In this document: one piece after another, positions 42,727 to 45,700 of the stretch
How positions within the stretch are numbered: position 1 is the first letter of the stretch
How the letters are laid out: the number at the start of each line of letters is the position of its first letter
Origin: Escherichia coli
Lineage (GTDB): Bacteria; Pseudomonadota; Gammaproteobacteria; Enterobacterales; Enterobacteriaceae
Assembly: GCF_017348835.2 (NCBI RefSeq)
Contig: NZ_CP071375.1
Direction: 5' to 3' (one strand)
DNA: 64,000 bases
Made by a program: the position numbers

Positions 42727-45700
42727 TCATCTAACATGCGCGCGACACTGGCGTAAGAACCGACTAACGTCCCCATATTGATGTTTACCGCCGAAGTGGG
42801 ATCGGCCATCTGACGGACGTTGGTGTCAGTACCGGAGCGGATATCTTTCTGACTTTGTTCGGTTAGCCAGCTTAACGCCTCTTCATCCGCGCCCGCTTTG
42901 TAGTGTTCCCATTTGGCGCGAGCGGCATCGTCGGTTTCATCGGCAATCACCATAAACAATACATAAGAGCCAACGTCGCGCCCGGTTTGCTCTGCGGCCT
43001 GTTTCATCCGCGCAGCGGTCGGGGCGAAAGCCGTGGGTGTATTTACGCCTTTGCCGAAACAGAAGTTGAAATCGGCATACTGGGCGGAGAACGCCATGCC
43101 AGCGTCGCTTTGCCCGGCGCAGATCACTTTCATGGGTACACTCGGTTGCGGACTGACGCGACAATCATTCATGGTGAAAAAATCGCCTTTAAAATCGCTT
43201 TTCCCCGAGCCCCACAGGTCGCGCAGCACCTGAACATACTCGGTGAGATAGTCGTAACGACGGGAGAAATAGTCATCGCCAGGCCAGATACCCATCTGCT
43301 CATACTCGGGCTTTTGCCAGCCAGTCACGAGGTTGACGCCAAAACGCCCGCCAGAGATGGAGTCGATGGTTGCGGCCATACGGGCGACGATTGCTGGAGG
43401 TAACGTTAAGGTGGCGGCGGTGGCGTAAATCTGAATGCGCGAGGTCACGGCCGCCAGCCCCGCCATCAAGGTGAACGACTCAAGGTTGTGATCCCAGAAC
43501 TCAGTTTTGCCGCCAAAGCCACGCAGTTTGATCATCGACAGGGCGAAATCGAAATGGTAGTGCTCCGCTTTTTGCACGATGGCTTTATTCAGTTCAAAGG
43601 TCGGCATGTACTGCGGCGCGTGGGTCGAAATGAGCCAGCCGTTGTTGCCAATAGGTACGAATACGCCAATTTTCATCATCAACCTCTCTTCGTCTCGTAA
43701 AGTGAAAGTCAGACGGGCGCTGCATCCTGCATATCCTTTTCAGCCGCGTATTGGCTTGTTTGCAAAGCGGATGCCAGTTTTTAAAAAGTGAATGTTATTA
43801 ATGTGTTAACATTGCGTTATCTAAAATATCTGGTAAAAAGTGGACTAAACGGTCAAAACAGTTGCACATAAAACATGCATCCGTGCGCGATGAGAGTGCA
43901 GAAGGTCGTGGCCGGGCGGGGGTTTTGCTATCCTGTTGCCAATCTACAAGAGGGGAGAGCGCATGACGCAAGGCGCAGTGAAAACAACGGGTAAACGTTC
44001 GCGCGCAGTAAGCGCGAAGAAAAAAGCGATTCTTAGCGCAGCACTGGACACTTTTTCACAATTCGGTTTTCACGGCACAAGGCTGGAGCAGATCGCAGAG
44101 TTGGCGGGTGTTTCAAAAACCAATCTGCTGTATTACTTCCCGTCAAAAGAGGCGCTGTATATTGCCGTGCTGCGGCAGATTCTCGATATCTGGCTGGCAC
44201 CGTTAAAAGCGTTTCGTGAAGATTTCGCCCCGCTGGCGGCGATCAAAGAGTACATCCGTCTGAAGCTGGAAGTCTCCCGCGATTATCCGCAGGCTTCACG
44301 TCTGTTTTGTATGGAGATGCTGGCAGGTGCGCCGCTGTTAATGGATGAACTGACGGGCGATTTGAAGGCATTAATTGATGAGAAATCGGCGCTGATTGCC
44401 GGTTGGGTTAAAAGCGGTAAACTCGCGCCGATTGACCCGCAGCATTTGATTTTTATGATTTGGGCTTCCACTCAACATTACGCCGATTTCGCCCCTCAGG
44501 TGGAGGCGGTGACAGGCGCGACGTTGCGCGATGAGGTATTTTTCAATCAAACGGTTGAAAACGTGCAGCGGATTATTATTGAGGGGATTCGACCACGCTA
44601 ATGATGCCGGAGGAAGGTGTAACATCCTCCGGCTACCTGTTTAACCGATCGTCATTAAACTGGCGTTACCGCCAGCGGCAGCGGTATTCACACTCAGCGA
44701 ACGCTCGATATACAGCCGTTCCAGAAGGATATTGCTTTCGCCACGGGCAAAACCCTGCACCGAAACAATTGCGCCATCCCGCGCGGCAACTGCTTCACAC
44801 AATGCGCGAAGCTGATCCGAATCACCGTGGAAGATCACCGCATCAAACGGTTGAGCGGTTATATTTTCCGCTTTCGCCAGTTGAATACGTTCGCTGACTG
44901 CCGATGGCAATGCCTTCACTAACTGACGATGCAGCGCGTCATCTGGCCACAGCACCTGGCTGCCCACCGCCAGCACGGCGGCGAGCTGAGTCAGCGCATC
45001 CTGTTCATCATCCGCGATACACAATACGCGCTCACGCGGCAGCAGCGTCCAGGTGTTGCGCTCACCCGTCGGCCCTGGCAGCAATCGTTGTGTTCCTGCC
45101 TGCGCCAGCTCGCCATATTGCGTACATAACGCCTGCAATTCTGGACGATTTGCTGCCCATTCCCGCAGTGCATTTAGCGGCTGAGTCAATGCGGCTTTCA
45201 ACTGCGCATCGACCGGATACTCTGCATCCTGACGCGCGAGTGTCACTGCCAGCGCACTTTCCGGGCGATTCGCCAGCAGACGGTAGAGATAGAGCGGACC
45301 GCCTGCTTTCGGCCCGGTACCGGACAACCCTTCGCCGCCGAATGGCTGCACCCCAACCACTGCGCCCACCATATTACGGTTAACATACAGGTTACCAACA
45401 TGGGCTGAGCCAGTGACCTGGGCGATGGTTTCATCAATACGCGTATGAACGCCAAGCGTCAGACCATAACCGGAAGCGTTAATCTGCTCGATCAGCTCCG
45501 GCAGTTGATTACGGTTGTAACGCACCACATGCAGCACCGGACCAAAGACCTCTTTTTGCAATTCGGCAAAGTCATCCAGTTCGATCAGCGTCGGGGCGAC
45601 AAAGGTACCGCTTTGCCATTCACGGGCATCTTCGTTGTTTTCCCGTACCGCCTGGAACACCGGACGGCCTTTGCTACGCATGGTCTGAATATGACGCTCG

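Follow-up and report, generated by a model that had tools for sequence, protein, structure and literature searches.

Genes and Features of the rutA-rutR Region

The DNA considered here is a stretch of 64,000 nucleotides from Escherichia coli, referred to below as the window, in which rutA, read from the minus strand, and the divergent regulator gene rutR are separated by a spacer that carries promoter, operator-like, and leader sequences (Table 1). The PE164 record, identical to the window, has all seven rut genes intact.

Table 1. Features of the rutA-rutR region, in window coordinates
Feature	Position	Strand	Remarks
rutR	43963..44601	+	Divergent from rutA
Two NtrC-like palindromes	43863-43879, 43884-43900		2-3 mismatches; upstream of rutA, ~113-150 bp from the predicted transcription start
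RutR-box-like palindrome TTGACCGTTTAGTCCA (minus-strand reading)	43841..43856		3 mismatches to TTGACCAnnTGGTCAA
-24/-12 element TGGCATCCGCTTTGCA	43776..43761	-	GG 43775-43774, GC 43763-43762
Predicted rutA 5' UTR, 74 nt	43677..43750	-	From the Bonocora 2015 distance and the K-12 alignment
Conserved leader block, 37 nt	43713..43749	-	mRNA positions ~+2 to +38; across Enterobacterales
Possible outer helix, ACGCGGC with GCCCGU	43749-43743 with 43718-43713	-	Named-helix model
Second conserved GGA	43734..43736	-	Precedes the hairpin GGA by 9 nt
Seven-codon ORF MQDAAPV*	43709..43732	-	ATG 43732..43730, TGA 43711..43709; what the frameshift leaves of the K-12 "N-terminal extension"
UGC-AGGAU-GCA mini-hairpin motif	43721..43731	-	CsrB-type GCAGGAUGC; core CAGGAUG has the sequence of the CsrB repeat unit
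C run, site of the 1-bp deletion	43715..43717	-	CCC here, CCCC in nearly all E. coli including K-12; aligned with K-12, PE164, and PapRG-06-5
Shine-Dalgarno (SD)-like AGAGAGG	43683..43689	-	6 nt before the MKIGV ATG; read from the sequence
Alternative rutA starts adjoining MKIGV	ATG 43679, TTG 43682	-	ORF list
rutA CDS from MKIGV, 363 aa + stop	42585..43676	-	ORF list; TIGR03612; PGAP annotation of PE164 agrees

The Sigma-54 Promoter and the Upstream Regulatory Sites

A consensus -24/-12 element had been placed in an earlier note on the minus strand about 80 nt upstream of rutA, and it is indeed found there: 84 nt separate the 3' end of TGGCATCCGCTTTGCA from the MKIGV ATG, and the 64 kb of the window hold no other exact match to TGGCAY-N5-TTGCW. 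Because 0.34 such matches are expected by chance, and 30% of shuffles contain at least one, the exact match alone is weak evidence, and the assignment of the element as a promoter draws on its position, its orientation, its identity to the K-12 site, and its conservation. An element of the form TGGCAY-N5-YTGCW precedes rutA in all 79 Enterobacterales species loci, and the hallmarks of sigma-54 promoters, namely fixed-spacing elements of the TGGCAC-N5-TTGCW type, orientation, distance, and conservation in orthologous loci, are present together. In the alignment the K-12 rutA site has the same sequence, and that site was bound by sigma-54 in vivo in published ChIP-seq (peak OS10) and in vitro as a gSELEX site; binding of the holoenzyme at the window promoter, published for the K-12 sequence, would be carried over by this identity. 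The promoter is the already-known NtrC- and sigma-54-dependent promoter of rutABCDEFG, the pyrimidine-breakdown operon, and a scan of the rutA-rutR spacer for sigma-70 promoters and terminators returned none. In Table 1 of Bonocora 2015 the distance to the annotated (long) ATG of K-12 rutA is 18, which, read as counted from the predicted transcription start, maps to 43750; transcription of rutA would start at about this position.

Farther upstream, the match of the RutR-box-like palindrome to TTGACCAnnTGGTCAA is by itself not above chance in a consensus scan. Its position agrees with the published RutR site, which sits between rutR and rutA, and we regard it as the putative RutR site. An NtrC pattern scan likewise found 69 matches where 91 were expected, which is not above chance. 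The legend of a published figure marks NtrC sites in the rut upstream region, and NtrC dependence of the rut promoter is described in the literature; the two palindromes, whose placement is typical of such enhancers, are putative NtrC enhancer sites.

A One-Base Deletion in the rutA Leader

The earlier note had also described an upstream in-frame ATG followed by a stop after seven codons. The ATG and the stop are both present, but in the window the ATG stands one base off the rutA frame. The rutA frame itself is open upstream as far as a TGA at 43742..43740 and holds neither ATG nor GTG, its sole start before the ATG pair being the TTG at 43682. With the ATG out of frame and a TGA at 43711, the note was right that the longer, K-12-style RutA of 382 aa is impossible from this sequence. 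The early TGA after MQDAAPV is due to a 1-bp deletion in a C4 run and not to a nonsense codon in the rutA frame: the alignment with K-12 that the note had proposed places CCC (43717..43715) opposite CCCC, the two sequences being otherwise the same from the promoter to rutA.

The deletion is rare. Of 5405 complete E. coli genomes, only those of PE164 and F2_81 contain the exact 61-mer that carries it, whereas the exact K-12 62-mer with CCCC occurs in 4396. Over 20 kb the window matches PE164 at 100% identity and F2_81 at 99.9%, against at most 97.9% for every other genome. A homopolymer sequencing or assembly error would suit both the location in a C4 run and the restriction of the deletion to two assemblies, but PE164 and F2_81 were deposited separately and agree over the 391-nt query, and together they form one lineage, about 2% divergent in this region from all other genomes, as fits a single inherited mutation; we find an error of this kind scarcely credible. 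The missing C is a rare private variant of one pig-associated E. coli lineage, and probably a neutral one. It probably lies within the rutA 5' UTR, where it would affect only the K-12-style start annotation, itself probably mistaken.

The Start Codon of RutA

The RefSeq protein of K-12 has 382 aa, the upstream ATG being in frame in that strain, whereas PGAP gives 363 aa in every non-K-12 strain examined. In each of the 79 species loci the protein begins MK[IV]GVF, and an SD-like GAGG precedes its start codon by 3-14 nt; in the window GAGG stands at 6 nt from MKIGV, while the upstream ATG is preceded by AAGGA with a spacing of 1 nt. The RutA profile TIGR03612 aligns its positions 1-354 with residues 1-354 of the 363-aa window protein (723.9 bits) and with residues 20-373 of the K-12 long form, and position 1 of the luciferase-like monooxygenase profile PF00296 falls on residue 20 of that form. 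Structures of RutA come from 363-aa and 364-aa constructs; the long form, too, was expressed and crystallised (5WAN), and hence can fold.

The 19 upstream codons fare differently across species. They contain an in-frame stop in 39 of the 79 species, and a TGA stands at extension codon 13 of the closest non-E. coli locus, that of a sister species (L004). Among the 57 non-E. coli leaders (59 unique leaders minus those of the window and K-12), the conserved leader block is in frame and open to rutA in 14. Its frame relative to rutA varies by genus, with counts of 30, 18, and 11 over the 59 leaders; frame 0, with 30 of 59, exceeds one-third, in sequences that are phylogenetically non-independent. 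Nucleotide conservation of the extension is confined to its first ~7 codons, in any of the three rutA-relative frames, and a conserved in-frame start with an open frame for the extension was not found among the orthologues (79 species, 57 non-E. coli leaders).

These data bear directly on the possibility that the 382-aa form is the real E. coli RutA, the deletion being a true frameshift that forces an internal start and makes the lineage a hypomorph or carrier of an early pseudogene. Such a view can appeal to the K-12 RefSeq annotation, to an ATG that is in frame in K-12, PapRG-06-5, and four other E. coli leader variants, to the 4396 genomes with the exact K-12 62-mer, and to the crystals of the long form. 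It is nonetheless very improbable in our judgment, given an extension that is absent, out of frame, or stop-broken in most genera and in L004, family profiles that begin at MKIGV, the poor SD spacing at the upstream ATG, and a rutA to rutG series that is intact throughout. The earlier note had held that a K-12 ATG in frame and heading a conserved extension would speak against MKIGV; the ATG is in frame and annotated in K-12, but the extension, broken by stops in 39 of the 79 species, is not conserved. The comparison of species loci, profiles, PGAP annotations, and structures thus backs the note's choice of MKIGV, which is supported as the RutA start and would be the one used in vivo. Within E. 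coli the start could equally well be MMKIGV, from the ATG at 43679, and some translation of the long form may take place in K-12, where the ATG is inside the predicted transcript.

A Conserved Block in the Leader

The first part of the predicted leader is conserved in its own right (1.18 bits per column; flanks, 0.26-0.43), and the block occurs in Escherichia, Enterobacter, Kosakonia, Erwinia, Pantoea, and Serratia. One explanation would be a regulatory leader peptide (M-Q-D/E-A-x-P/Q-R...) starting at the upstream ATG, with the deletion altering its length and stop and, through these, rutA translation. An ATG, GTG, or TTG stands in the CAG-GAN codon frame in 46 of 59 leaders, Q-D/E-A-x-P/Q-R can be read in most of them, and some of the changes look synonymous (CCC/CCA/CCG; CGT/CGC). 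Yet the start is missing in 13 of the 59, two of which have TAG in its place; the ORF length and the stop position vary; the third positions of codons 2, 4, and 5 are near-invariant and codon 5 varies freely at its first position, a non-coding pattern; the SD-like GGA lies only 0-2 nt from the start codon; and the third position of the CGY codon covaries with the base at +2. We consider a leader peptide unlikely. Both an upstream ORF and the extension were rejected as the main constraint on the block, on the grounds of frame, start, stop, and column variability.

The block may instead act as RNA, as a post-transcriptional control element for which a CsrA site is the leading candidate, with a stabilising helix at the 5' end or a standby site for ribosomes as alternatives; this proposal, which complements the promoter-and-leader explanation given below, we put forward only tentatively. 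The block begins at about +2 of the predicted transcript, and its core, GCAGGA(U/A/C)GC, equals the CsrB repeat units, which in K-12 CsrB read CAGGATG six times, CAGGAAG twice, and CAGGACG once. The SELEX consensus of CsrA is RUACARGGAUGU. A GC/GC pair enclosing an AGGAN loop is present in 46 of 47 sequences, and the three-pair helix is 90.7% paired. In 55 of 58 leaders the hairpin GGA is preceded, at 9-13 nt, by another GGA; shuffles give 20.6 on average and at most 30. Spacings of 9-13 nt are at the lower limit reported for dual-site CsrA binding. The named two-helix model pairs 85.6% of cells, compared with 8-52% when the helices are slid, which lends it moderate support; G-U pairs are tolerated in these helices, and one A-U to G-C covariation is seen, probably a single evolutionary event. 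The deletion in the window would take out the mismatch base of the flanking helix.

Several observations weigh against a control element of this kind. RNAalifold recovered only the 2-bp GC/GC hairpin from 47 leaders, and in single-sequence folding the leaders and the isolated blocks did not exceed shuffles in stability and mostly fell short of them (z +0.3 to +1.85); a stable structured RNA, for which the thermodynamic support is weak, is not claimed. A scan of 43500-44000 against Rfam 15, at E up to 10, gave no match. The O157:H7 leader has GAA in the hairpin loop, and 13 species have short leaders, mostly devoid of the block. Of the features expected of a CsrA site, a GGA in a hairpin loop in A(N)GGA context and a second GGA within reach of the CsrA dimer are present, but there is no overlap with the SD or start, by which CsrA usually represses: the block ends ~25-30 nt before the SD, itself about 45 nt from the block as a whole, and the SD, GAGG, lacks a GGA. 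Supplementary data of E. coli CsrA CLIP-seq list no peak on rutA, which we assume to be barely expressed under the growth conditions used (no nitrogen limitation), while CsrA does cross-link to the neighbouring rutR mRNA, with a peak in the coding sequence. The supplements of CsrA-target predictions have no rutA entry, and a literature search returned no paper tying rutA to CsrA or sRNAs and, in the open literature searched, no description of the block. Further copies of the block were not found in E. coli, where the median genome has it at a single site.

Interpretation and Significance

We consider it highly probable that the region comprises a known promoter and its leader, that RutA is made from MKIGV, and that one C has been lost from the leader in a single lineage, leaving RutA unchanged. 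The stretch 43650-43780 would hold the NtrC/sigma-54 promoter of rutABCDEFG and the first half of a ~74-nt 5' UTR, with translation of RutA starting at ATG 43676. The 382-aa start of K-12 would be an ATG that lies ~18 nt into the leader and is in frame by chance in most E. coli. In the PE164/F2_81 lineage, the loss of one C from the C4 run (leader positions ~+34 to +37) would have put this ATG out of frame and produced the seven-codon ORF; RutA would be unchanged and the operon intact because the deleted base is non-coding.

A more speculative suggestion, which we hold to be possible rather than probable, is that the K-12 "extension" is a 5'-terminal RNA control element, made up of the CsrB-type GCAGGAUGC hairpin, the second GGA, and a GC-rich helix, through which CsrA or another factor might couple carbon status to nitrogen-scavenging pyrimidine catabolism. 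If the block is a real control element, it would add a post-transcriptional layer to rut regulation. The finding is otherwise an ordinary one, the promoter being of a textbook type and already mapped; its value is curatorial, in that a natural frameshift and cross-genus evidence argue for moving the K-12 rutA start from the 382-aa form to MKIGV (363 aa).

Comparison with Known Systems

The closest counterpart is rutAp of K-12, which is NtrC/sigma-54 dependent and RutR-controlled. From the promoter 16-mer through to rutA the two sequences differ by the one absent C, and they share the divergent rutR, the RutR-box-like site, and the NtrC-like palindromes; the window has four further substitutions, all farther upstream in the rutA-rutR spacer. 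The canonical NtrC-activated sigma-54 promoters glnAp2 and glnK, as known from established work and from Table 1 of Bonocora 2015, have the same GG/GC elements at fixed spacing, leaders of tens of nucleotides, and, like the region described here, enhancer-like palindromes 100-150 bp upstream. Unlike at these promoters, the putative NtrC sites at rut are pattern matches no commoner than chance, and an additional TetR-family regulator, RutR, would sit between enhancer and promoter.

The leader block resembles the GGA hairpins bound by CsrA in the CsrB repeats and in glgC-type leaders, with CAGGA(U/A/C)G in a short stem-closed loop (compare CsrB CGCAGGACGCG and AGCAGGAAGCA) and a second GGA close by. 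It departs from CsrA-binding leaders in that the candidate block is clear of the SD and the start, its GGAs are only 9-13 nt apart, and the motif is lost in some lineages. The start annotation, finally, is like that of other over-long K-12 reference proteins, for which the ATG of the longest ORF was annotated (here 382 aa) whereas homologues, profiles, and PGAP begin downstream, in this case by 19 codons. Unlike in those cases, the spurious "codons" of rutA overlap a leader block conserved as nucleotides, and it is in part this conservation at the nucleotide level that makes the extension look real within E. coli.

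Start Codon of RutA and the One-Base Deletion in Its Leader

The rutA gene lies on the minus strand, where GAAGAGAGGTTGATGATGAAAATTGGCGTA offers three adjoining potential start codons: TTG at 43682, ATG at 43679, and ATG at 43676, the last of which begins MKIGV. The reading frame is open back to a TGA at 43742–43740, and upstream of the ATG pair it contains neither ATG nor GTG, the TTG being its sole in-frame start. The ATG at 43732 encodes MQDAAPV followed by TGA; the earlier note was thus right about the stop after 7 codons but mistaken in calling this ATG in frame, as it lies outside the rutA frame because GCGCCCGT, shared by the window and PE164, replaces the GCGCCCCGT with which it aligns in K-12 and PapRG-06-5. 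The longer K-12-style RutA, as the note had held, cannot be made here.

In K-12, the upstream ATG is in frame with rutA and opens the 382-aa RefSeq protein (NP_415532.3); for PE164, PapRG-06-5, one O157:H7 strain, one B-type strain, and the remaining non-K-12 strains examined, the protein called by PGAP has 363 aa. An in-frame K-12 ATG with a conserved extension had been named as the observation that would count against the MKIGV start; the first half is found, but the extension is not conserved as coding sequence, in-frame stops falling among the 19 codons that precede MKIGV in 39/79 species loci. In the closest non-E. coli locus (L004, a record titled E. coli SCPM-O-B-8794 but a separate GTDB species representative), the upstream ATG is still in frame and codon 13 of the extension has changed from CGA to TGA, an interruption of the long form that arose naturally and independently of the one in the window. 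All 79 species loci, by comparison, carry an MK[IV]GVF start with an SD-like GAGG 3–14 nt upstream; in the window, GAGG stands 6 nt from MKIGV, whereas AAGGA is only 1 nt from the upstream ATG. Position 1 of both TIGR03612 (the RutA equivalog model) and Pfam PF00296 aligns to long-form residue 20, the M of MKIGV, and residues 1–354 of the 363-aa protein match TIGR03612 positions 1–354 with 723.9 bits. The PDB holds 363-aa and 364-aa RutA (6SGG and 6SGL series) as well as a tagged long form (5WAN); these structures speak to the folding of either form but not to which of them is native. These comparisons support MKIGV as the probable functional start, as proposed earlier; the start-site discrepancy itself is known or ordinary.

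The exact 61-mer with CCC occurs in 2/5405 genomes (PE164 and F2_81), and the exact K-12 62-mer in 4396, with another 1009 differing at one to three positions; a spread sample of 40 records contained no leader indels save one IS1 insertion. By this distribution, the deletion is one event in one lineage. That the missing C is a homopolymer error is unlikely, as PE164 and F2_81, whose assemblies were deposited separately, agree. Rare and private to this lineage, the deletion lies within a non-coding leader, and the intactness of all seven rut genes in the PE164 record, identical to the window, is evidence against its being part of operon decay. In E. coli KFu015, a river-water isolate (L088, NZ_CP147130.1), an IS1 at 788–1485 interrupts the leader of rutA precisely at GCAGGATGC, accompanied by a target duplication of 9 bp, and parts the sigma-54 promoter from rutA.

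Lineage and Gene Content

The window, part of an E. coli chromosome, contains wrbA, rutGFEDCBA, rutR, putA, putP, and efeUOB. Between 36000 and 56000 it is 100% identical to PE164 (pig, Nanjing) and 99.9% to F2_81, and because no other complete E. coli genome exceeds 97.9%, a divergence unusual for core genes, the comparison points to either a divergent lineage or import of the segment. Between putP and efeU, at ~50683–52025 on the minus strand, lies a 447-aa ORF, annotated "hypothetical protein" in PE164 and with zero Pfam matches above threshold; its 2.6-kb region is fully present in just 643/5426 complete E. coli genomes, which marks the gene as accessory.

The Sigma-54 Promoter

The -24/-12 element noted earlier upstream of rutA is present and, with its surroundings, aligns identically to K-12, which is stronger support than the motif match. 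The latter alone is weak evidence, since TGGCAY-N5-TTGCW, although matched exactly only here in the 64 kb, has a chance expectation of 0.34 matches, occurs at least once in 30% of shuffles, and with one mismatch permitted is no commoner than chance. TGGCAY-N5-YTGCW is found upstream of rutA in 79/79 Enterobacterales species loci fetched, sigma-54 ChIP-seq places peak OS10 (motif CTGGCATCCGCTTTGCA) upstream of K-12 rutA (Bonocora et al. 2015, PMC4591121, Table 1), and RpoN gSELEX recovers the rutA-rutR spacer (Shimada et al. 2021, PMC8743547). The promoter is already known or ordinary. Bonocora et al. (2015) list 18 as the distance to the start annotated in K-12 (the long form); if that is counted from the predicted transcription start, transcription would begin at ~43750 and the MKIGV start would have a 74-nt leader.

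Features of the rutA upstream region
Feature	Coordinates	Strand	Remarks
-24/-12 element, TGGCATCCGCTTTGCA	43776..43761	minus	exact consensus match
Leader block, 37 nt	43749-43713	minus	~+2 to +38; 5' end of rutA leader
RutR-box-like palindrome	43841-43856		position agrees with published promoter scheme; pattern match at chance level
Two NtrC-like palindromes	43863-43900		position agrees with published promoter scheme; pattern match at chance level
rutR	43963-44601		regulator gene of rut; Potts et al. 2017 peak_110 concerns its mRNA

A Conserved Block in the rutA Leader

The sole item deserving follow-up, the remaining findings being of low interest, is a leader block conserved across Enterobacterales genera, which in an alignment of 47 distinct leaders (-12 element to ATG) carries 1.18 bits per column versus 0.26–0.43 in the flanking leader. 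It reads (A/G)GCGnnGC, followed by a variable stretch with a first GGA, then UGC-AGGA(U/A/C)-GCA, N2, and GCnnCG(Y), the UGC arm including the upstream ATG; we found no mention of it in the searchable literature. Thirteen species have short leaders of 40–54 nt, most wholly lacking the block. Block-less loci with the sigma-54 element only 40–45 nt from the rutA ATG (L022, L024, L025, L026, L040, L042, L043, L048, L051, and L054), from Enterobacter hormaechei, E. cloacae, Buttiauxella, and Dryocola, are natural cases in which the block was deleted or replaced.

Relative to rutA, the block is in frame 0 in 30, frame 2 in 18, and frame 1 in 11 of 59 leaders, and is both in frame and open in just 15/59, K-12 among them. 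An upstream ORF was rejected as the main constraint on the block: the start is missing in 13/59 leaders, the stop is not conserved, and invariant third codon positions adjoin a free first position.

As an RNA structure, the block was modelled with a 7-bp outer helix and a 3-bp inner helix around an AGGAN loop; this named model is 85.6% paired, G-U pairs tolerated, versus 8–52% in slid controls. One outer pair alternates between A-U (10 sequences) and G-C (34), probably through a single evolutionary event. RNAalifold retains only 2 pairs in the leaders, which fold less stably than shuffles, and Rfam contains no matching family; primary sequence is the strongest feature of the block. In the window, the deleted C occupies the mismatch position of the outer helix, turning a C·C mismatch into a one-base bulge and barely altering the folding energy. 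Among natural variants, L084 (O157:H7 ECP19-198) has GAA for GGA in the hairpin loop, equivalent to 43726 (ATGCAGAATGCAG), and the B-type strain NEBExpress and bovine isolate CE0026f have GGAC for GGAT and GTG for GCG.

The leading guess, a doubtful one, is that the block is a candidate CsrA site. Against it, the block and the SD do not overlap, O157:H7 has the loop GAA, most of the 13 short-leader species do without the block, and published CsrA CLIP-seq supplements contain no peak on rutA, which we assume was barely expressed in those cultures. They do contain one inside the rutR coding sequence (peak_110, K-12 1074528–1074704; Potts et al. 2017 supplement), so that CsrA is reported to contact the mRNA of the rut regulator. 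A CsrA site nevertheless leads the candidates because a second GGA lies 9–13 nt upstream of the hairpin GGA in 55/58 leaders (shuffles: mean 20.6, maximum 30) and because CsrB is built from repeats of the core, CAGGA(U/A/C)G: CsrB of K-12 has CAGGATG six times, CAGGAAG twice, and CAGGACG once, in units including CGCAGGACGCG and AGCAGGAAGCA.
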